From Planctomycetaceae bacterium (GTDB taxonomy: Bacteria > Planctomycetota > Planctomycetia > Pirellulales > UBA1268): a stretch of 64,000 bases of DNA. The translations under genes and the position numbers were made by a program. The DNA is taken from positions 21,408 to 85,407 of the forward strand of contig CANHCU010000002.1 of the NCBI GenBank assembly GCA_947459185.1. The letters are read 5' to 3'. A model generated the notes under the pieces. That model ran no database searches, was not told the origin of the DNA, and saw only the letters and a list, made by a program, of their open reading frames with translations. This document shows positions 17,306 to 29,708 of the stretch, piece after piece. Within the stretch, counting starts at the first letter, position 1, and the number at the start of each line of letters is the position of its first letter.

Positions 17306-17728
17306 CTACTTGGCGGCCGTCTTGGTAGCCGCGCTCCACTTCGGACGGCAGATGATGAACGTGCCGAGGCCGATCGCGAGCAGCATCAGCGCGTAGCTCG
17401 GGCCGTATTTCATCAACGTGTTCGTACCGCCCGCCGCAGAGGCCCCGGTCGCCGGCGCGGCGGCTGCGGCCGGGGCGCCACCGGCAGGAGCGTTCGCAGG
17501 ATTTTCCGCCACATTCGCCCCCGGCACGTTCGCCGCGGGGTTCACCGGCTTGGCGGCCTTGTCGAGCGGAGGGGCAACCAGCGCAGCCCCCGCCTGGGCC
17601 AGCAGCGGGGTCGCATTCGCCCAGGTGGCCGGCCCGACCGTTGCAAGAATCGCGATCGCGGCACCGATGCGGCGAACGCCGACGGAAGCACACACGGCCA
17701 CGATCGTTTGTGAAGCCCCCAGTGCCAT
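17306..17728 (-). CDS. Hypothetical exported protein with Ala/Pro-rich linker and C-terminal TM anchor
   Basis: ATG 17728 MALGASQ...; N-terminal hydrophobic stretch; C-terminal SYALMLLAIGLGTFIICRPK. Confidence 0.55.
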   Translation of the reverse strand: MALGASQTIVAVCASVGVRRIGAAIAILATVGPATWANATPLLAQAGAALVAPPLDKAAKPVNPAANVPGANVAENPANAPAGGAPAAAAAPATGASAAGGTNTLMKYGPSYALMLLAIGLGTFIICRPKWSAATKTAAK

Positions 17729-17891
17729 TGCTACCCTTCTCCGGAACGGAAACACGTGCCTTTCCCTGCCACGGCACTCTACCAAGCAACCGTCCCTTCG
17801 GCGAGGTACATTGCCGGGGTGTCTGGACGTCGCCACATCCCCGACCCCACGGTGGGGCCCGGATACCGCGACGACAACCGATGGATTCTCC

Positions 17892-19043
17892 ATGGCCCCG
17901 AAAACGAAACGAGCCCCAAAGTCAGCCGGCACCGCCGTAGCCAAGCTCCCGCCGGTTGACGTGAAGACCCGTGGTCTGATCATCAACCTGGCCGACGAGG
18001 TCGCCACGGCCGCCGAGAAGCGCCGCGACCCGCACCTGGAAATCCCCACCCGCAGCCTCTCGAACGTCCGCTTCAACAAGTCGCAGAAGATCATCGAGAT
18101 GGGGGGCCAGACCAACCGTCGGCAACTCTTCAACCTCTCGCAGGCCAAGAGCTACATGCAGACCCTGCTGGTGGCCACCGGCTGCAAGCAGCTCATCGAG
18201 CAGCAGAAGACCACCAGCATCCGAGGTCTCTACTATCTGCTCAAGCACACGATCGAAGGCACCCGCGAGGAGACCTTCGCCACCCAGGAGGAGTGCGACC
18301 CGATCATCGAGGATCTGGAGGTCACACTCGAGAGCCTGCGCGAGGAACTGCACGTCTACGCGAGCAACCGCGGCGGCATGGTGGGACCGATCACGCTCAT
18401 CGACTCTGGCGACGAGATCGACTGTTCCCGCATGGGCTCTGGCGGCTACAGCATTCCCTCGATCGTCGAGGCCGACATCGTGAAGTTCAAGTCGTGTGAT
18501 GCGAAGTTCATCCTGCACGTCGAAAAAGACACGGTCTGGCGCCGGTTCAACGAGGACAAGTTCTGGCGGAAGCACAACTGCCTGCTCACGCACGGCGGCG
18601 GCCAGCCGCCCCGCGGCGTGCGGCGGATGCTCTACCGGCTCCACCATGAATTGAAGCTCCCCGTCTACTGCCTGCTCGACAACGACCCCTGGGGCTACTA
18701 CATCTACTCAGTGCTCAAGCAGGGCTCGATCAACCTGGCCTACGAGTCGAAACGGATGGCGATCCCCGAGGCGAAGTTCCTGGGCATCCGGTCCCGAGAC
18801 TACGAACGCTGCAAGCTCAGCCAGAGCGTGCAGATCGCCCTCAACGACACCGACGTCAAGCGGGCCAAGCAGATCGCCGCCTACCCGTGGTTCGCGGAGA
18901 AGAAGGGCTGGCAGAAGGAGATCGAGACGATGCTGAAGAACGGCTTCAAGCTCGAAGTCGAGTCGCTGATCTCGAAGGACATCAGCTACGTGACCGACGT
19001 CTACACGCCCGAACGGCTCGAAGAGCGGGACTGGCTGGATTGA
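17892..19043 (+). CDS. top6A: DNA topoisomerase VI subunit A (Spo11/Top6A family)
   Basis: Winged-helix TTSIRGLYY (catalytic Tyr region); Toprim VEKD and LLDNDPWGYYI (DxD); GGGQPPRGVRR. Confidence 0.9.
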   Translation: MAPKTKRAPKSAGTAVAKLPPVDVKTRGLIINLADEVATAAEKRRDPHLEIPTRSLSNVRFNKSQKIIEMGGQTNRRQLFNLSQAKSYMQTLLVATGCKQLIEQQKTTSIRGLYYLLKHTIEGTREETFATQEECDPIIEDLEVTLESLREELHVYASNRGGMVGPITLIDSGDEIDCSRMGSGGYSIPSIVEADIVKFKSCDAKFILHVEKDTVWRRFNEDKFWRKHNCLLTHGGGQPPRGVRRMLYRLHHELKLPVYCLLDNDPWGYYIYSVLKQGSINLAYESKRMAIPEAKFLGIRSRDYERCKLSQSVQIALNDTDVKRAKQIAAYPWFAEKKGWQKEIETMLKNGFKLEVESLISKDISYVTDVYTPERLEERDWLD

Positions 19044-21518: not shown

Positions 21519-21971
21519 TCATTCCCGCTGCCGCGAGTCGCACACGATCGTCACCGGCCCGTCGTTCACGAGGTGCAACTGCATGTCGGCCGCAAACACA
21601 CCGCGAGCCGGGGGACGGCCGATCTGCTGCTCCACCACAGCGAGAAAATGCTCGTAGAGAGGCACGGCCTCGGCCGGCCGCGCCGCCCTCACGAAGCTCG
21701 GACGGTTCCCCTTTCGCGTGTCGGCCAGCAGCGTGAATTGGCTGATGACGAGCACCCCGCCGTCGATCTCGCGCACGCTGAGATTCATCTTGCCGTCGCC
21801 GTCGGCGAAGATCCGCATCTGCGCGATCTTTCCCGCCAACCACTCGGCATCGGCCGCTGAGTCTCCCACCTCGACGCCCACGAGCACGAGCAGGCCCCGC
21901 CCAATTCGACCTACGGCCTCACCGCTGATCGTGACGCTTGCCTCGGAAACTCGCTGTACAACGGACCGCAT
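21519..21971 (-). CDS. dtd: D-aminoacyl-tRNA deacylase
   Basis: MRSVVQRV, SQFTL, KGNRPSF, NDGPVT. Confidence 0.96.
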   Translation of the reverse strand: MRSVVQRVSEASVTISGEAVGRIGRGLLVLVGVEVGDSAADAEWLAGKIAQMRIFADGDGKMNLSVREIDGGVLVISQFTLLADTRKGNRPSFVRAARPAEAVPLYEHFLAVVEQQIGRPPARGVFAADMQLHLVNDGPVTIVCDSRQRE

Positions 21972-22020: not shown

Positions 22021-22848
22021 TCACGCCTCCTCGCGGAGGAGTTGCGGCGGCTCTTCCAGGTCTTCCAATTCCGGCGGCAGCTGGAGTTGTCGCATCGTCT
22101 CGTCGGTCCGCCGCATTCCCTCGGCCACCTCGTCCACCCGCTGGGCGATGTCGCTCATGTCCCGCTTGGCCACCGAGCCCTCGGCGAGGGCCGCGATTTT
22201 CGACTCGAGCCGTTCGATCTCCGCCGCCACGACGTCGAGCTTTCTCTTGGCGTCGTCGATGTTCTCCAGCCGCTCCCGGCTTGTCTTGAGGTGGTCTTCG
22301 ATCGTGGCCCGCAACTGCCCCGACTCGCCTCCGCCTGCCGAGAGCCTCGCCAGTCGCTTCTCGAGATCGGCGATCCTGGCCCGAATCGAACTGTCGTCGG
22401 TGTGGTCGAGAAACTCGGAGAGTGTTGCCGCCCCCCAGATCATTCGCAGGTAGCCCCAGAGCAGCCTGTCGAGCGACTCGAGCGACCCTCGATCGGGCCC
22501 CGTGACATCGGGGCCCCGCATGCTTCCTCCCAATTCCACGAGCTTCTCGCAGTGATCCCGGAGCCGATCGAACCTGGCCAGCAATGCCGGCGGCAGCTTC
22601 CGGCGAATCCGTTCGTAGGCCTCGCGAGCCCCGGCCGCTTCCTCGGCCCGTCTGGCCTTGGCGTCCTGCGCATCGACGGCACTACGGAACCGATCGTTGG
22701 TCAGCATGCTGGCGAGGTAGTAGATCTCTCCTGCCGCCACCAACGGCAGCACCACGCCCGGAAACCCGCTGATGAAAGCGGCGGCAATCCCGGCTCCGAA
22801 GAAGAGCAGATTCCATCGCGTCGCGAATGCCGTTCGGAGGTACTTCAT
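22021..22848 (-). CDS. Hypothetical membrane protein (2 N-terminal TM helices + long coiled coil), last gene of the PspA operon
   Basis: Hydrophobic WNLLFFGAGIAAAFISGFPGVVLPLVAAGEIYYL followed by charged heptad-rich helices. Confidence 0.75.
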   Translation of the reverse strand: MKYLRTAFATRWNLLFFGAGIAAAFISGFPGVVLPLVAAGEIYYLASMLTNDRFRSAVDAQDAKARRAEEAAGAREAYERIRRKLPPALLARFDRLRDHCEKLVELGGSMRGPDVTGPDRGSLESLDRLLWGYLRMIWGAATLSEFLDHTDDSSIRARIADLEKRLARLSAGGGESGQLRATIEDHLKTSRERLENIDDAKRKLDVVAAEIERLESKIAALAEGSVAKRDMSDIAQRVDEVAEGMRRTDETMRQLQLPPELEDLEEPPQLLREEA

Positions 22849-22851
22849 AAT

Positions 22852-22948
22852 GGTGCCAGCCACCAAATCTGGGGTATCTATCTTCCTGGGTATCTGAAGT
22901 GCTTCTGGCTGCCTCGCTTGCCTGAATGTGGTGGCTGACACCTTTTTT
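22852..22948. repeat. Family-2 REPIN-like inverted repeat element
   Basis: GGTGCCAGCCACCA (22852-22865) and TGGTGGCTGACACC (22929-22942) form a 13/14 inverted match, followed by a T-run. Confidence 0.7.
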
Positions 22949-23789
22949 ATCGATGGTGGGCAGCCGACTCGATCTTTTCGATCTGTTCGTGCAGCTGCTG
23001 GACCTGCTCGTGAAACCAGGGCTCCAGTTGCGTTTCGCGGGCGGGGGCCGCGGCAGCCGGCATGCGGATGTCGCCCGCGATCCTACCCGGAGTCGTGGCC
23101 ATCACGAAGACCCGATCGCCGAGGTAGACCGCCTCCTCCACCGAGTGTGTCACGAACAACACCGTCGCCTGCACCTCCCGCCAGAGCTTGACGAGCAGGT
23201 CTTGCATGTCGAGCCGGGTGGCGGGATCGAGGGCCCCGAAGGGTTCGTCCATCAGGATGATGCGGGGCCGAAGAATGAGCGTGCGGGCGATCGCCACCCG
23301 CTGCCGCATGCCGCCGGAGAGTTCATGCGGATACTTCGTCGCGTCGCGAACCGGATCGAGCCCAACCCTCTCGATCCACTCGCGGCCCTCGGCCTCCCGC
23401 TGCCGCCGCGACACGCCCCGACACTCCAGCCCGAAGGCCACGTTGTCGAGCACCGTGCGGTTGTCGAAGCTCGTGTAATCCTGGAACACCATGCCGCGGT
23501 CGGCACCCGGCCCCACGACCTCGCGGCCGAGGACCGTCACCGTGCCGCTGGTGGGCGGATGCTGCGGCTCGAGGCCGGCGACCAGCCGCAGCACCGTGCT
23601 CTTCCCGCAGCCGCTCGGCCCGAGAAACGATGAAATCTCGCCGTGATCGGGCAGGTCGGCAATGGTGAAGCTCACATCCTTGATCGCGGTGTATTCCCGG
23701 GGCGTGCCCCGGCCATAAATCTTCGTCACCCCGCGAAAGTCCACCGCAGCCGGGCGGTCTGCCGGTGTCACGTCGCTCACGTCGCTCAT
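22947..23789 (-). CDS. ABC transporter ATP-binding protein (NitT/TauT/SsuB type)
   Basis: GPSGCGKS, LSGGMRQR, ILMDEPFGALD, FVTH; ATGA overlap with the permease. Confidence 0.93.
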   Translation of the reverse strand: MSDVSDVTPADRPAAVDFRGVTKIYGRGTPREYTAIKDVSFTIADLPDHGEISSFLGPSGCGKSTVLRLVAGLEPQHPPTSGTVTVLGREVVGPGADRGMVFQDYTSFDNRTVLDNVAFGLECRGVSRRQREAEGREWIERVGLDPVRDATKYPHELSGGMRQRVAIARTLILRPRIILMDEPFGALDPATRLDMQDLLVKLWREVQATVLFVTHSVEEAVYLGDRVFVMATTPGRIAGDIRMPAAAAPARETQLEPWFHEQVQQLHEQIEKIESAAHHR

Positions 23790-24748
23790 GCAGCCCTCTC
23801 CTCCGGGCCGGGAAAGCCGTGCAGCAGGCCGCGCACGAGCCGTGGCAGCCATCCATGACCGCCATAGCGGTGCGGAAAGAGGTCGCACTGCAGCCACCAG
23901 AGCGCCCGATCGATCGCATACGCGATCAGCGGGATGATCACGAGCACGATCAGGATCGGTTCCCGCTCGCCCCGCCGCTGCGACATGTTGATGAGATCGC
24001 CGAGACCACCGGAGTCGCTGCCAAACTTCACGAGTTCCGCCAGCATGACGTAGCCAAATGCGAGCCCAAAGAGCAGCCGGAGCGAGTTGAAAATGGCTGG
24101 CGCCGCCAGCGGCACGAGCACCTTCAGAATGATCTGCAGACGCGAGGCACCAAGCGTCAGCGCCGTATCGACATACCGCTGCGGCACGTCCAGCACCGCG
24201 GCGGTCGTATCACTCACCACGAAAGCTACGCTGGCGATGAAGAGAAACATCACCTTCTGGAATTCGCCGATGCCGAACAGGAAAAACGTGAGGGGGATGA
24301 GCGCCGCCACCGGAATGTTGCGACCGAAGACGGTCAGCGGCGCAAGGAAGGCCCTTACCGCCGGAAAACAGGCGGCGAGCACTCCCAGCGGCACGCCGAC
24401 GGCCGCGGTCAGCCCGAAGCCAAAGCAGACCCGCATCAGCGTGCGGACCGTGTTCGCCACGAGCCTCCGCTCGCCGAACACCCGCGGCAGTTCGCGAAGG
24501 GTCTCACTGGGGCTTGGCAACATGGCGGGACTGATGAAGCGGGCCTCAGCATCGCCCGCCGTGGCGATGAACCAAGCCGCCAACACACACGCCACACAGG
24601 TGATCCCCCAGAGCAACGCGGTCACCGCGGGGGCGTCGCCCCGCAGGGGCCGGGCCGGTGCAGCCACGGCATTCGTGGCACATCCCGCCCCAGCCGCTGA
24701 CTCCCCCGCCATCTTGGACGCCTCCCCGGCACCACCTGACGCGGTCAT
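23786..24748 (-). CDS. ABC transporter permease (NitT/TauT/SsuC type)
   Basis: LPSP, multiple TM segments, EAA-like loop YVDTALTLGASRLQ, AELV...GGLGDLI. Confidence 0.9.
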   Translation of the reverse strand: MTASGGAGEASKMAGESAAGAGCATNAVAAPARPLRGDAPAVTALLWGITCVACVLAAWFIATAGDAEARFISPAMLPSPSETLRELPRVFGERRLVANTVRTLMRVCFGFGLTAAVGVPLGVLAACFPAVRAFLAPLTVFGRNIPVAALIPLTFFLFGIGEFQKVMFLFIASVAFVVSDTTAAVLDVPQRYVDTALTLGASRLQIILKVLVPLAAPAIFNSLRLLFGLAFGYVMLAELVKFGSDSGGLGDLINMSQRRGEREPILIVLVIIPLIAYAIDRALWWLQCDLFPHRYGGHGWLPRLVRGLLHGFPGPEERAA

Positions 24749-26577
24749 TCCTTCTCCGCCGAATAGACCTTGATCTCGACGCGGCGGTTCTTGGCGTGAT
24801 CATCCGGATGCTCGGGATCGGCGGGGCGATCCCAGCCGGCGCCATCGACCGCGAACCGGTTTTCGTCAAACTCGAATTTCCCCACCAGCGCCTCCTTCAC
24901 GGCGGCCGCCCGCTCGCGGGAAAGCTCCTTCACCATCGCCGCCGGCACCGATCCCTTCATCGAGCTGTCGGTGTGCCCCTCGATCACGATTCGAGCGTTC
25001 CCAAACTGCTTGGCGAGCACGCCCACCTCGTCGAGCACGAGATCCACGGTCGAGTCATACGGCTCCTCGACCTCCCGGCCGTTGATCCGCCGCACGATCC
25101 GCTTGCGGAGATCCCAGCTGTTGGGGAAGAAGTGGATCACCACGGTGTTGGTGAGAATCTCCTCGTTCTCGGCCCGGATCTGCGAGAGCGTCTTCGGCGG
25201 CATAGGCTTGGCGTATTCGTCCTTTGTCTCGGCATACTTCGACTCCGCCCCGAGCTTCTGGATCACCGAGAAGTCCATCACCTGATCGAACGGCACGGGG
25301 GGATTCGAGATCGCGCCGATGCGACGGTAGAGATAGTAGGACTGCTTCCAGATGCGCTCGAAGTTGGCCGGGTTGTTTCGGTTGATGAAGAACTGGTAGT
25401 TCTCGGCCCAGTTCGTGCTGTGGGCATCGCCGAGCATGGAGAGCGTGTCGGTGGCGGGAATGTTGTAGCCGGCCGACATCAGCTCGGCGGCCTTCGCCCG
25501 GGCGGATTCTGTCTTAAGGAGTTCCATCGCATCGAAGATGCCCCGCACGATCGCTTCAATCTTGTCGGGATGATCCTTGGCGAAGTCGGCCCGCGCAAAC
25601 CAGACGTCGGCGATCAGCCGGTTCGCCGTCTGGGTGGTGACGAGCATGCGGTTGCCCTTGGACTTCTCCAGGTTGTAGATGTCGGGTGCCCACGACACGC
25701 AGCCGGCAAGATCCTTCTGCGCGTTGAAGGCCGCGGCCGCCTGAAAGGCATCTTCGGTATAGACCATGTCCACGTCGCCCGGTTGCAGCCCACCGGCCAC
25801 CAGCATGTTGAGGGCAAAGAACTGACTCGGCGAATTCTGGGCCAGCGCCAGTTTCTTGCCCGCCAGATCGCGGACCGTTTTGATCCCCTCACGGACGACG
25901 ATGCCGTCGCCGCCGTTGGAGAAGTCCACCTGCTGAAACACCCGCGGCATCACGCGGGAGTCCTTCGGCGCTCCGGTACGATCGACGAGCCCCTCCAGAA
26001 ACAGCGGGATCATGTCGAGCGTGGCCCAGCCGATGTGCACCTCGCCGGCGGCGTAGGCATCACGCATCGTCACGGGGTTGTCGATGAGCACGAGTTCGAT
26101 CTTGAACGGTTTGCCGCCCGGCGCCTGCCAGACCTTTCCGGCCTTGAAGCCGTTGTTGGCGAGGATGATCGGACTCCAGCCGGCCCAGACATTCAGCGCG
26201 AAGCGAACTGTGTCATCCTCGAGCGGTTTGTAGGCACTGGTGCCCTTCACCGGCGGCAGTTTCTCGGCCGGCTTGAACGTGTATTCCTTGACCGTGGTCG
26301 GCACTACCGAATCACCAGCCTCGAAGAGTATCCCCTCACCGCCGGTGCCACCGCCGGTCGCTCCGCCCGCTGCTGTTCCAGGCCCATCGCCCGCGCCGAC
26401 CGGCCCACCACCCGCCGGCCCCGCCTGCCGGGCCGCGGCGTTGCCGCCACCGCCGGCCGGCCGCCCCAGGCCAAACTGGTCAAGCATGCCGGCCCGCCAG
26501 GCAGCGAGCGCCACGAGACTGAGAATGACGGCCCAGACAGTCAGCCAGAACGGAGCCTTGGGTTGGCCAGCCATCAA
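24745..26577 (-). CDS. Membrane-anchored NMT1/SsuA-like substrate-binding protein fused to a C-terminal OmpA-like peptidoglycan-binding domain
   Basis: N-terminal TM; DFSNGGDGIV, DLAGKKLA; OmpA motifs IEGHTD, LSRERAAAV, NRRVEI. Confidence 0.88.
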   Translation of the reverse strand: MMAGQPKAPFWLTVWAVILSLVALAAWRAGMLDQFGLGRPAGGGGNAAARQAGPAGGGPVGAGDGPGTAAGGATGGGTGGEGILFEAGDSVVPTTVKEYTFKPAEKLPPVKGTSAYKPLEDDTVRFALNVWAGWSPIILANNGFKAGKVWQAPGGKPFKIELVLIDNPVTMRDAYAAGEVHIGWATLDMIPLFLEGLVDRTGAPKDSRVMPRVFQQVDFSNGGDGIVVREGIKTVRDLAGKKLALAQNSPSQFFALNMLVAGGLQPGDVDMVYTEDAFQAAAAFNAQKDLAGCVSWAPDIYNLEKSKGNRMLVTTQTANRLIADVWFARADFAKDHPDKIEAIVRGIFDAMELLKTESARAKAAELMSAGYNIPATDTLSMLGDAHSTNWAENYQFFINRNNPANFERIWKQSYYLYRRIGAISNPPVPFDQVMDFSVIQKLGAESKYAETKDEYAKPMPPKTLSQIRAENEEILTNTVVIHFFPNSWDLRKRIVRRINGREVEEPYDSTVDLVLDEVGVLAKQFGNARIVIEGHTDSSMKGSVPAAMVKELSRERAAAVKEALVGKFEFDENRFAVDGAGWDRPADPEHPDDHAKNRRVEIKVYSAEKE

Positions 26578-26671
26578 ACACCTCCCCGCGTGCAGTGCAC
26601 TGAAACAAAAAATAAAAGCGAGATAGAAGCGTCACAGAAGAGAGCGGATCAGCCGGCCTTGGCCGGCCGCA

Positions 26672-26977
26672 TTATCCGCGAAATTTTGTCAGCGGCCGCG
26701 ACTTGCCCGCCATGTAGAAGGCATTCATGAGATCATACGCCGTCACCTCGCAGAGCAGACGCGTGACCTTGTCGTGGGCCTCCGGCGAAAGCAGCGGCTC
26801 GACCTCTTTCATGAGGGCCACGACGCGGTGTTCCTGCTCCTCGATTTCCTTCGTTTCCACGCGGCCGTCGGCCACCACGTCGAGAAACGAATCGAGTTTG
26901 CGGGCGTATTCCATGAGCATGGGGGCCTCGCTTGCCTCGTCGAACCACGGGGTCTTGCCTGCAGATGCCTTGGACAT
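26672..26977 (-). CDS. Small helical hypothetical protein of the PspA operon
   Basis: 101 aa MSKASAGKTPWFD...ADGRVETKEIEEQE...TKFRG; GAGGAG RBS; operon context. Confidence 0.75.
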   Translation of the reverse strand: MSKASAGKTPWFDEASEAPMLMEYARKLDSFLDVVADGRVETKEIEEQEHRVVALMKEVEPLLSPEAHDKVTRLLCEVTAYDLMNAFYMAGKSRPLTKFRG

Positions 26978-27043
26978 GATGGAAATCTCCTCTGGGGTGT
27001 TTTCGGGTGACTCTGGACCGACAGTTTTATCGCGCAAGCATCC

Positions 27044-28930
27044 TCACGAGGAACCGATCACCTCGCGAATCGCCGCCAATCGTTCCTGCAGGTGCGCCCG
27101 GCCACCGGGCTTCCCGACCTGCTCCTTCCAGCGCGTGGGCAGGAACCGTTTCTCGGTGCATTCGAGCACCGCGGCGATCTCCTGCATCTCCTTCTCCAGC
27201 CCCTGCGCCGAGGGCATGAAGTCGTCGAGCGCGGCCTTGAGGTCTTCCTGGGAAATGGTGTCGGGGTTGGGCAGGCCCGCGTCGGCCGCCCGCTCCAGCC
27301 CCTTCCGCTTGGCAGCCAGAACGACACTCTCGATGTCGGCACCAGAGAGCCCGAGTTCGAGGTCGATCGGCCCCGGCAGGCCCGCGGCCAATTTCGCATG
27401 ACACTTTCGTGCCATGGCGGTGAACATCGCGTCCATCTCCTGCTGATCGTGCGGATAGAAGAGCGGGATGTGCACCTCGGCCCGGCCCTGACGCTTGAGG
27501 TCGATCGGCAGCAGATCGGGACGGCTCGTGAGCAGCATCCAGACAATCTTGCCGCGATACCGCGTGTCGCCCATCTGCCGGGCGATCATCGAAAAGACTC
27601 GTGCCGAAGTGCCCGAGTCGCCATCCGACTGACGGTTGCCGAGTGCGGCGTCGGCCTCGTCGATGACGACGACAACCGGCCCGAGTCCACGGAGCACGTC
27701 GAGCGCATGCTCGAGGTTGCCCTCCGTCTCGCCGACATACTTGCTCCGGAAGTTCTTGAGCACCGCGCAGGGGATGCCGACACTGCCGGCGTAGCACTCA
27801 GCGATGAAGCTCTTCCCGGTGCCGACCGGCCCACAGATCAGGTAGCCCATCGGTGCACTCTCGAACTGGCCACGTTTGATCGCGCGGGCGTCTGACTCGA
27901 GCCTATTCTTCGCCTCGGCATGGCCGGCGACCGCGTCGAGCGTGAGCCGCGGCTGAATGAACTCGATCAGCCCCTGGCACGACCGTTCGATGAGGTCCTT
28001 TTTCTTGGCTGCGAATTCCGGCCCGTCGGGAGGTGAGCCGTCGCGGGCCGACATCGTGATCACCGATCGCAGGCTTTCGAGCGTCAGCCCGCCTGCCATC
28101 CCGGCCATCCGCTGCACTGCCTCCATCTGCGCGGCGGGCATCCCGGCCGCTTGGGCGGTCGACACGGCAAACCGCGTCCGCTCCTCGCTATCGGGGAGAG
28201 GAATACCGATCGCCGTCACAGCGGCGTTGGTGACCAGCCGCGGATGCAGTTCGGCAAGACTGTCGGTGAGCAGCACGATCGCCACGTTCACCCGCCGGAG
28301 CAGCGGATTGGTCGCCCACGACACGATCCGCACGAGCCGGCCAGCACCGGTGCGAGCGCTGGCTGCGGCATCACCCGCCGGCGCGAGATACTGGCCGTAG
28401 TCGAGCACCACGGCAATCCGCTTTCGCTGCTCGGGCGGGTCGATGAGGTTGCGTTCGAGCAGGGCATCGATCGCCGCGATTGCCTGATCGGGATCGCGTG
28501 GCCAGTTGGCGGCGTTGCCCATCCGCTCGGTGAGCCACTGCGCCATGGTTCGGAGCCGGTTGGCGTCGGGCCCGGCCAGCGGCCGCAGCCCCTTTCCCAC
28601 GTCATACGCAAGCACGATGTCCCAACGGCCAAACAGCTCCCTCGCCAGAAAATCGGGCACCGTACCCCAGCCGGCCGGCGGCTGGCCCTCAGGCGGCCCC
28701 AGTGGCACAAGGTCGCGGACATTGCCGTGCAGCAGAAACACGCAGCTCGTGCCTGAGAGATACGCGTCGCCGAGCCGTTCCGCCCACGCCGGGCACCAGG
28801 CGGGCAACGCGGCCGAGGGACCGGCCGAGGAAGCCGTACCCAGCTGCGGGGCCGCTGGCTGCGGGGCGGATGGATGCGAAGGGGCTGGCGGGGGGGCGGG
28901 CTGGTCGGCAGATGGGGCAACTTTGGTCAC
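27044..28930 (-). CDS. Classical-clade AAA+ ATPase (degenerate N-terminal AAA-like domain + intact C-terminal AAA domain)
   Basis: Walker A GPVGTGKS, pore loop SKYVGETE, Walker B VVVIDE, SRH TSRPDLLPIDLKRQGR, LSGADIE. Confidence 0.9.
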   Translation of the reverse strand: MTKVAPSADQPAPPPAPSHPSAPQPAAPQLGTASSAGPSAALPAWCPAWAERLGDAYLSGTSCVFLLHGNVRDLVPLGPPEGQPPAGWGTVPDFLARELFGRWDIVLAYDVGKGLRPLAGPDANRLRTMAQWLTERMGNAANWPRDPDQAIAAIDALLERNLIDPPEQRKRIAVVLDYGQYLAPAGDAAASARTGAGRLVRIVSWATNPLLRRVNVAIVLLTDSLAELHPRLVTNAAVTAIGIPLPDSEERTRFAVSTAQAAGMPAAQMEAVQRMAGMAGGLTLESLRSVITMSARDGSPPDGPEFAAKKKDLIERSCQGLIEFIQPRLTLDAVAGHAEAKNRLESDARAIKRGQFESAPMGYLICGPVGTGKSFIAECYAGSVGIPCAVLKNFRSKYVGETEGNLEHALDVLRGLGPVVVVIDEADAALGNRQSDGDSGTSARVFSMIARQMGDTRYRGKIVWMLLTSRPDLLPIDLKRQGRAEVHIPLFYPHDQQEMDAMFTAMARKCHAKLAAGLPGPIDLELGLSGADIESVVLAAKRKGLERAADAGLPNPDTISQEDLKAALDDFMPSAQGLEKEMQEIAAVLECTEKRFLPTRWKEQVGKPGGRAHLQERLAAIREVIGSS

Positions 28931-28958
28931 GATTGGCGGCTCCCGGGGTGGTTCAGGT

Positions 28959-29708
28959 TTAGCCCAACGTCTGCTTTGTCCGCTCGCTGCCCAGTTCCTT
29001 GTCGTCGGCCGTCACACCAGCGGTCTCAGGAGTGACCATGCCCATATCCACCTCAAACTCGCGGAGTGCCTGGTCGGCCATGTTCTTCTCAACGGCCTGT
29101 TCGGCCTTGATCTTGTCGAGGCCGTCCCCGGACAGATCAGCCGCCACGCGGACCTTGGCTCGATTGAGGCCGATCTTGTCCTGGATCACGTCCTCGATCT
29201 GGCCAAAGTCGGTGGTGATGTCAAAGTTGAAGCTGTTGGCGAGTTTGGCTAGTTCCGCCTCGGCCCGCGAGAGCTTCAGGTCAGCGTCGTACCTCTGAAT
29301 CTTGGTCTTGAGATCTCCGAGCTTCTTGGTGGCGTGCTTCACCTTGGTGACGTTGTTGTCGTAGGCGGTCTCGTGGAGTTTGAGTTGGGACTCGTTTTCG
29401 GCGAGGTCTTTCTTGGCCTTCTGGAGTTCGAGAGCAAACCGCGCCGCCGTCTCACGCTCGCCAGCCTGCAGGTAGGCCTTCACCCGGGCCTCGAGCGACG
29501 AGACATGATCTCGGCAGCTGTTCACCTGCCGCATAACCCGCTCTACCAGCGCCCGATACTGCTCAAGGCCCTCCCGACCCTCCTTCATCTGATCGACCGC
29601 CTTGTCATATTCATACTGCAACTGGGCAACCGGATCGGCCGTCCAAAAGTAGTTGGCGACCTTGTTCATCTGCGCGGCGAGCGCCTTCCAGAGTTTTCCC
29701 AGGATCAT
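28959..29708 (-). CDS. pspA: PspA/IM30 (Vipp1, ESCRT-III superfamily) protein
   Basis: Amphipathic N-terminal helix MILGKLWKALAAQ, ADPVAQLQY motif, AYLQAGERETAARFA, long coiled coils, 249 aa. Confidence 0.85.
   Translation of the reverse strand: MILGKLWKALAAQMNKVANYFWTADPVAQLQYEYDKAVDQMKEGREGLEQYRALVERVMRQVNSCRDHVSSLEARVKAYLQAGERETAARFALELQKAKKDLAENESQLKLHETAYDNNVTKVKHATKKLGDLKTKIQRYDADLKLSRAEAELAKLANSFNFDITTDFGQIEDVIQDKIGLNRAKVRVAADLSGDGLDKIKAEQAVEKNMADQALREFEVDMGMVTPETAGVTADDKELGSERTKQTLG

Follow-up and report, generated by a model that had tools for sequence, protein, structure and literature searches.

A conserved planctomycete operon pairs a PspA-family protein with a tandem AAA+ ATPase that may recycle its polymer

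The DNA analyzed here, called the window, is a stretch of 64,000 nucleotides (nt) from Planctomycetaceae bacterium (assembly GCA_947459185.1, 90% complete; contig CANHCU010000002.1, positions 21,408-85,407 of the forward strand). At window positions 22021-29708 it holds seven co-directional, closely packed open reading frames (ORFs) on the minus strand, which in the order of transcription encode a PspA protein, an AAA+ ATPase, a 101-amino-acid (aa) protein, a binding protein fused to an OmpA-like domain, a permease, an ABC ATPase, and a 275-aa protein. This operon is real and conserved, and it is another member of a system that was predicted in 2024 (PMC11237479). The explanation which we favor, with roughly even confidence, is that a tandem AAA+ motor of its own would recycle the PspA polymer; a membrane anchor and a wall-tethered binding protein would often take part, and the importer would be optional. 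Recycling of PspA by the ATPase is suggested by the strict co-occurrence and adjacency of the two genes, by loci reduced to a core, by the pore loop and arginine fingers of the ATPase, and by a conserved motif in the tail of PspA.

The positions of the ORFs, their family matches and the gaps between them confirmed the tight seven-gene cluster that had been claimed in a sequence-only reading of this DNA, and the gene-by-gene description given there was accurate. The first four genes are separated by gaps of 28, 66, and ∼94 nt, the permease gene is joined by ATGA overlaps both to the binding-protein gene and to the ABC ATPase gene, and the last gap is 98 nt. Two start sites were corrected, that of the ABC ATPase most likely to the ATG at 23789 (280 aa) and that of the last gene most likely to the ATG at 22848 (275 aa). 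The binding protein could start at TTG 26577 or ATG 26574, and the ATG of the 101-aa gene is preceded by GAGGAG. No sigma-70-like promoter was found for the operon, terminator-like sites occurred only at chance level (five versus 6.0 in shuffled sequences), and an Rfam scan of the window returned a single tRNA and no riboswitches.

The neighborhood survey that the same reading had proposed was carried out, with the best 80 of 189 ATPase-related loci taken as close loci, 40 of 56 ATPase matches plus later fetches as distant ones, and 301 Planctomycetota genomes as the sample for co-occurrence. The data showed that the synteny is conserved. In 70/70 close loci where the flanking sequence allows a call, PspA lies directly 5′ of the AAA gene, and in 71/71 the small 101-aa gene lies directly 3′ of it, so this arrangement is not due to chance. 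Of the 80 close loci, 39 have all four downstream genes, 31 are cut by contig ends in this part, and 10 lack the four genes and consist of the PspA-AAA-small core only. The binding protein was not found in any of five such core-only genomes searched (completeness not given; no positive control), nor was the membrane protein, the product of the 275-aa gene, in any of four (completeness not given; own genome as control). The same parts recur in at least eight different gene orders, some with an added vWA gene or a 200-aa helical gene, and the PspA-ATPase pair persists when it is split across contigs.

In the single-protein search the ATPase was detected in 55/301 genomes, compared with 57/301 for the PspA subfamily, 45/301 for the binding protein, and 37/301 for the membrane protein; the profiles of the latter three families were built from ATPase-linked members, and related genomes are not independent. 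All 57 genomes with the PspA subfamily hold the ATPase when its divergent subclade is counted (51 by the single-protein search, five by adjacency, and one separately), and no case of ATPase loss beside a retained PspA of this subfamily was found among them. Conversely, the PspA subfamily is present in 52 of the 55 ATPase genomes. The membrane protein is confined to genomes in the ATPase list (37/37), the binding protein is in that list in 35/45 genomes, and 18 of the 55 ATPase genomes show no membrane protein. Hence, PspA and the ATPase form the core of the system, and the transporter is an optional and its loosest part.

Two halves can be distinguished in the ATPase. The C-terminal AAA domain contains the motifs GPVGTGKS (367), KYVG (397), VIDE (422), LLTSRP (466), and KRQGR (479). 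The N-terminal half is a degenerate copy of the same domain (hhalign of one half against the other: probability 93, E 3e-7), which lacks Walker A and reads VLDY at the position of Walker B; the first ∼40 residues are rich in proline and alanine and weakly conserved. Judged from these sequences, the first AAA domain is catalytically dead and the second is an intact classical-clade domain. Thus, the description of an intact Walker A/B, KYVG pore loop and arginine finger behind a degenerate AAA domain was borne out by the motif positions and by hhalign. The catalytic residues, the aromatic-hydrophobic pore loop and the arginine fingers are conserved in 26 diverged members with 25%-51% identity. 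An aromatic-hydrophobic pore loop marks protein translocases, and serine, which is the sensor 1 residue here and is replaced by cysteine in several relatives, is permitted at this position in the classical clade (PMC5039278). The combination of Walker A/B, pore loop 1, polar sensor 1 and arginine finger defines the protein, on sequence criteria, as a classical-clade AAA+ remodeler.

The PspA protein belongs to the PspA/Vipp1 family of the ESCRT-III superfamily, as indicated by its PF04012 match, by the similarity of its family profile to solved Vipp1/PspA structures (E 3e-13), and by the amphipathic N-terminal helix (hydrophobic moment of 0.48 at residues 2-19 versus a median of 0.28). It is the sole PF04012 match in its own genome. 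After the last PspA helix and a variable linker there follows the sequence K-E-L-G (residues 237-240). The corresponding pattern K-x-[LIMV]-G is present within the last 25 residues of 71/71 close PspAs, and in only 2/30 canonical planctomycete PspAs. Among 40 PspA-ATPase pairs from the same locus the tails were of the KxhG type (where h is L, I, M, or V) in 23, LPE in 12, and QKIxE in two, with three unmatched, and the LPE-tail pairs form one side of a branch with support of 100 in the ATPase tree. A short motif kept in a disordered tail fits a docking site, comparable to the binding of Vps4 to the C-terminal ESCRT-III helix. In these pairs the tail type tracks the ATPase subclade, and the tail motif is likely a docking handle. 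LPE-type tails are also found in a longer sister operon (L175, L176, and L276-L281; loci are given by their L numbers), which has the order binding protein-vWA-binding protein-transmembrane (TM) helical protein-PspA-binding protein-permease-ABC-AAA. A weak alignment (probability 63) connects the TM helical protein of this operon with the 275-aa family.

In the favored explanation PspA would polymerize on the stressed inner membrane, which is likely, and the ATPase would grip the PspA tail, thread the subunits through its pore and so recycle the polymer, in the manner of Vps4 although it is no Vps4 itself. The tail may be recognized by the dead AAA domain or by the 101-aa protein. The genomic data fit in part a different relation between the two proteins, in which PspA would inhibit the ATPase, as it does PspF, and free it upon membrane stress for another cytoplasmic target. 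The PspA-PspF interaction is the one established bacterial PspA-AAA+ interaction according to a 2025 review (PMC7619361), and strict co-occurrence fits this relation equally well. However, neither a protease nor a DNA-binding domain was detected in the 26 members, the ATPase is a threading-type classical AAA protein rather than an NtrC-type one, and no other gene is equally constant as a neighbor, which make such inhibition improbable.

Several points weigh against recycling of PspA by the ATPase. All of the evidence is genomic, and the counts show linkage and are not accompanied by a statistical test. Plain co-inheritance would also make the tail type follow the ATPase tree. Canonical PspAs at 30/30 control loci from the same phylum have no such ATPase within ∼1.5 kb, hence PspA does not generally need the ATPase. 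In three ATPase genomes that are 89%-94% complete no member of this PspA subfamily was detected, and one of them, at locus L085, has the genes for the membrane protein, the AAA protein and the small protein in a row. As regards the partners, 10 of the 45 binding-protein genomes are outside the ATPase list and their fetched loci show other neighbors, and the link of the membrane protein to PspM, described below, is one Atlas lead (0.88) that was not reproduced by the Pfam profile.

The sequence-only reading had proposed an ESCRT-III/Vps4-like pair. As in ESCRT-III/Vps4 (CdvB/CdvC) systems, the gene of an ESCRT-III-superfamily polymer adjoins that of a classical-clade threading ATPase, and the polymer carries a short conserved motif in its C-terminal tail. 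On the other hand, the features of the Vps4 family are missing from the ATPase. Neither MIT nor Vps4_C matched in 26/26 members at E 0.01, and the MIT profile found nothing in the organism's own genome, although the positive control matched in Sulfolobus. The Vps4 clade is defined by an extra arginine directly before the arginine finger, as stated in PMC5039278, but the R-x-G-R of this region, invariant in the 26 members, reads KRQGR here, with no tandem RR. The CdvC score is 42 bits versus a cut-off of 650, and it is lower than the CDC48 and PAN scores; the best solved relatives are VAT/Cdc48. With two AAA domains, the N-terminal half being a degenerate AAA copy, membership of the Vps4 family was rejected, and a true Vps4 was not found above the cut-off in any of the 301 planctomycete genomes (0/301). 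The pairing of the two proteins is backed by linkage and co-occurrence, and "Vps4-like" can hold as a functional analogy only. A 2025 review states that bacteria appear to have no Vps4-like ATPase (PMC7619361), and in a 2024 survey ESCRT-III+Vps4 systems are limited to archaea and eukaryotes (PMC10936438).

The phylogenetic comparison of the AAA domain that had been proposed was also run, as a quick IQ-TREE search on 71 rows, including 21 chosen family rows and omitting two poor rows from the own genome; the tree included no bona fide Vps4. The operon ATPase family formed one clade with support of 86, grouped with a pair of ATPases from Bacillota plasmids and, on a long branch, an ATPase from a Nostoc plasmid. 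The latter we take to be Ycf46, from its DUF1257/DUF2997 neighbors. A branch with support of 98 parted this group from Cdc48, FtsH and the planctomycete ATPases that scored best for CdvC, which are all of the RPGR type. The tandem AAA architecture is shared with Ycf46-like proteins, the Bacillota-plasmid ATPases and Cdc48/VAT, but the operon family is a clade of its own, and its dead first domain is unlike Cdc48 D1. The closest outside relatives are the tandem AAA ATPases of Bacillota megaplasmids (L154:5989-7566 and L155:5986-7608), which sit among hypothetical genes, with no PspA annotated there. Plasmid records yielded distant ATPases only, with ∼25% identity and unrelated neighbors. Adjoining pairs of single-domain classical AAA+ genes of ∼400-520 aa were also seen in several planctomycete genomes (L126, L146, L147, and L152), and in pairs of this type one partner has the Walker B sequence FLDEFE and no RxGR motif.

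The 275-aa protein has one strong segment in its hydropathy profile, and in the structural model a pair of N-terminal helices (11-27 and 30-50) precedes long helices (pLDDT 79); its tail is conserved and contains proline. Neither the 275-aa nor the 101-aa protein matched a family above the cut-off. By position the 275-aa protein corresponds to the "SIG+TM+Snf7" gene of Ravi et al. 2024 (PMC11237479), but the Snf7 label was not reproduced here. PF03357 did not match the gene, Snf7 was not among the Pfam families listed (25 of 104) for 26 members of the family, and hhalign against PspA gave a probability of 12.8. A fold search returned generic helical bundles, the best being VirB6 (Z 10.0, rmsd 4.2 over 149), with no ESCRT-III subunit among the top rows. 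The nearest named Atlas cluster is Rv2743c-like/PspM (185 shared features, with the family on 40% of members), while PF25587 did not match the gene in a loose first-look genome search in which the controls also gave nothing above the cut-off. Thus, the searches confirmed neither label, Snf7 or PspM. In mycobacteria PspM keeps a form of PspA at the membrane (PMC13622631), and by analogy the 275-aa protein is likely a membrane anchor, which would fix PspA there. The mycobacterial ClgR-PspA-PspM operon (Rv2744c/Rv2743c) resembles the present one in combining PspA with an integral membrane helical partner, and differs from it in containing, as tabulated, no ATPase or transporter.

The confinement of the membrane protein to ATPase genomes noted above would also fit a division of labor in which the targets of the ATPase are the membrane-embedded components, namely the 275-aa hairpin protein, the binding protein, or the permease, which it would remodel, extract, or build into a complex, while PspA would do no more than patch the adjacent membrane. 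The gene of the membrane protein, with its conserved tail, is often directly 5′ of the AAA gene, and at L085 it is kept with AAA and the small gene in a genome without this PspA. We consider this unlikely given the 18 ATPase genomes without the membrane protein and the close relatives that keep PspA-AAA-small without the membrane block.

The 101-aa protein has 470 homologs, and its model consists of three helices (pLDDT 75.8). The fold search gave no match (best Z 4.6), and Atlas named no family for it. Together with the three-helix model, these results led us to drop the idea of a TerB or EF-hand fold, which had come from the loop D-x-x-A-D-G-x-V-x-x-x-E. At the distant loci the gene was present in 6/40, each time directly 3′ of the AAA gene. 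A helical protein of ∼200 aa with no informative Pfam match is encoded in or near the operon at 12 loci without the 101-aa protein (L093-L102, L107, and L111; for example, L093:8662-9270), and in other lineages a protein of this size comes after the AAA gene; the two proteins are not detectably related (probability 0.2).

The earlier description of the fourth gene product as a TM-anchored binding protein fused to OmpA held up: NMT1 and OmpA both matched, and a hydrophobic segment spans residues 8-26. Its best solved relatives are TauA and Omp38. The C-terminal part has the motifs GHTD, LSRERA, and NRRVE, of which the aspartate of GHTD and the arginine of LSxxRA correspond to the residues that bind the peptidoglycan stem peptide in OmpA-like domains. 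With its PF00691 match and both conserved residues, the OmpA-like domain is by sequence a peptidoglycan-binding one, and because it keeps them a tether from the membrane anchor to the wall is likely. The protein would then reach from the inner membrane to the peptidoglycan and so keep the machine at sites attached to the wall. The permease has an EAA-type loop, and the ABC ATPase has intact Walker A, Q-loop, LSGGM, Walker B and H-loop motifs, which, with the binding protein, make up an importer of the TauABC/SsuABC type by sequence. The best ligand families were TIGR03427 (68.5 bits versus a cut-off of 333.9), SsuA (62.3 versus 163.5), and TauA, all so far below the cut-offs that no ligand was assigned. 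In the favored explanation the ABC pair would import the small ligand of the binding protein and would be the most dispensable part of the machine.

The transporter genes could alternatively reflect the main job of the operon, namely wall-pinned uptake of a solute of the sulfonate, nitrate or small-nitrogen-compound type; PspA and the ATPase would then protect the membrane during transport. The intact ABC motifs, the apparent translational coupling from the binding protein through the permease to the ATPase, the identity of the best-scoring ligand families, and two loci apart from PspA (L178 and L179) at which the binding-protein family adjoins permease and ABC genes are in accord with this. 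Yet those family scores are far below the cut-offs, close relatives have lost the entire block, and at eight loci the binding protein and the membrane protein stand without permease and ABC genes (L104, L106, L163, L166, L167, L171, L177, and L291, with contig ends close by at L166 and L291). In the genomes of these eight loci the best permease match had an E-value of 2.7e-53 or weaker, or there was none, as compared with 1.2e-63 or better for linked permeases of the operon's subtype, with a profile that favors linked genes; two linked permeases of a divergent subtype scored 1e-31 and 1e-38. At each of seven weaker permease sites that were fetched there is a separate ABC ATPase, accompanied at four of them by a separate binding protein that has no OmpA domain. 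Uptake as the main job is accordingly a reading to which we assign little likelihood. The coupling of the PspA-ATPase pair to a wall-tethered sensor or transporter is looser than had been implied earlier, as the block is absent from 10/80 close loci and the permease and ABC genes are absent beside the binding protein elsewhere. The binding protein-OmpA family was also seen after two membrane-anchored coiled-coil genes, and the stretches fetched there contain no ATPase (L180-L184 and L190); the first of these genes shows a PspA-like register, though a weak one (hhalign probability of 17), and the two could be an exported PspA-like pair.

The suggestion that the operon is relevant to the invaginated cytoplasmic membrane typical of planctomycetes was not supported. 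A role in building or maintaining these invaginations would agree with the good conservation of the operon in the lineage (189 ATPase relatives), and a tether between membrane and wall could shape them. By the family profile, however, the ATPase is present in 21/101 genomes of the class that are each at least 90% complete, and in 0/23 and 0/22 genomes of two families, and across the phylum the single-protein search detected it in 55/301 genomes. Evidence from other phyla, taken from the published table and from Atlas taxa, includes related contexts listed for Handelsmanbacteria, Clostridium, Archangium, and Salinibacter (PMC11237479). In addition, the unit was seen together with a vWA gene in two viral contigs from IMG/VR (91 and 186 kb), in the order vWA-PspA-binding protein-permease-ABC-membrane protein-AAA (L292, 1565-9720; L293, 1610-9730). 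Near the unit of L293, in which the AAA gene is split in two ORFs, PHROG matches to exonuclease, clamp-loader and sigma-factor genes indicate phage-type replication genes. A further locus, L294, has PspA and AAA of the LPE type. The term "AAA" does not occur in the main text of the huge-phage preprint 10.64898/2026.10.24.761521. Given this distribution, we regard the invagination role as extremely improbable.

Similar neighborhoods are indeed in print in a comparative survey of the Psp system, as the sequence-only reading had indicated. Ravi et al. 2024 describe a PspA/tandem-AAA/ABC/PBPB-OmpA operon, exemplified by OGG56892.1 from Handelsmanbacteria, and tabulate shorter forms of it for Clostridium, Archangium, and Salinibacter (PMC11237479). 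They propose ATP-dependent membrane remodeling comparable to Snf7/Vps4 and tied to solute transport, with OmpA binding peptidoglycan, so that the idea of an ESCRT-III/Vps4-like pair was already published. All six of their genes are present here in one co-directional unit with an inactive and an active AAA domain; the differences are that the AAA gene is second here and last there, and that there is an extra 101-aa gene here. The string "planctomycet" is absent from the main text of that paper, and its single occurrence in the supplement concerns another ATPase. An experimental study of the operon was not found in the literature searched, which did not extend to subscription papers, in line with the earlier statement. 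The operon also shares with pspFABC a PspA, an AAA+ protein and membrane partners, but PspF is an NtrC-type transcription activator. The claim that pspB, pspC and pspF are missing stands for PspB and PspC, whose profiles matched nothing in the own genome, and for a divergent pspF at the locus, the only place checked; a classical pspFABC system is thus not seen.

The features of the operon are collected in Table 1. Its upstream neighbor is a divergent gene of a Gfo/Idh/MocA oxidoreductase. Downstream, 49 nt past the operon, there is a co-directional D-aminoacyl-tRNA deacylase gene (21519-21971), which in close relatives varies in place, being upstream, downstream or directly 3′ of the small gene. 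Elsewhere in the window, the C-terminal ∼360 residues of the ORF at 17418-19043 presumably resemble a topoisomerase VI subunit A/Spo11-type protein, as judged by eye.

Table 1. Features of the PspA-AAA operon in window coordinates
Feature	Position	Strand	Basis
PspA/IM30-family protein (ESCRT-III superfamily), 249 aa	28959..29708	-	PF04012, 52.6 bits (cut-off 33.9)
PspA tail motif K-E-L-G, residues 237-240, candidate ATPase-docking handle	28989..29000	-	Tail comparison
Tandem AAA+ ATPase, 628 aa	27044..28930	-	PF00004 at residues 364-489
101-aa three-helix protein without a family, candidate adaptor	26672..26977	-	Model, neighborhood
N-terminal hydrophobic anchor, flexible linker, TauA/SsuA-type binding domain and C-terminal OmpA-like domain, 610 aa	24745..26577	-	NMT1, OmpA
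ABC permease, TauC/NitT type, 320 aa, six hydrophobic segments	23786..24748	-	BPD_transp_1
ABC ATPase, TauB-like, 280 aa	22947..23789	-	ABC_tran
275-aa protein, N-terminal hydrophobic helical hairpin, all-helical body, Pro-containing tail	22021..22848	-	Position, model

A bolder form of the favored explanation, which we put forward only tentatively, is that a counterpart of Vps4 evolved independently in bacteria, where a tandem AAA+ protein from outside the Vps4 clade would read a subclade-specific tail code (K-x-h-G, LPE, or QKIxE) on its own PspA and disassemble the polymer, and where the wall-to-membrane binding protein and the hairpin protein would make up a transporter-free sensor of wall distance or ligand. 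Because both the context and the hypothesis were published before, what the window contributes is supporting detail, not a new system. This type of operon bears on how bacterial ESCRT-III is disassembled, and it offers a two-protein test, a four-residue handle, and natural minimal versions consisting of PspA-AAA-small. If the explanation is true, it would mean a convergent pairing of ESCRT-III with a threading ATPase.

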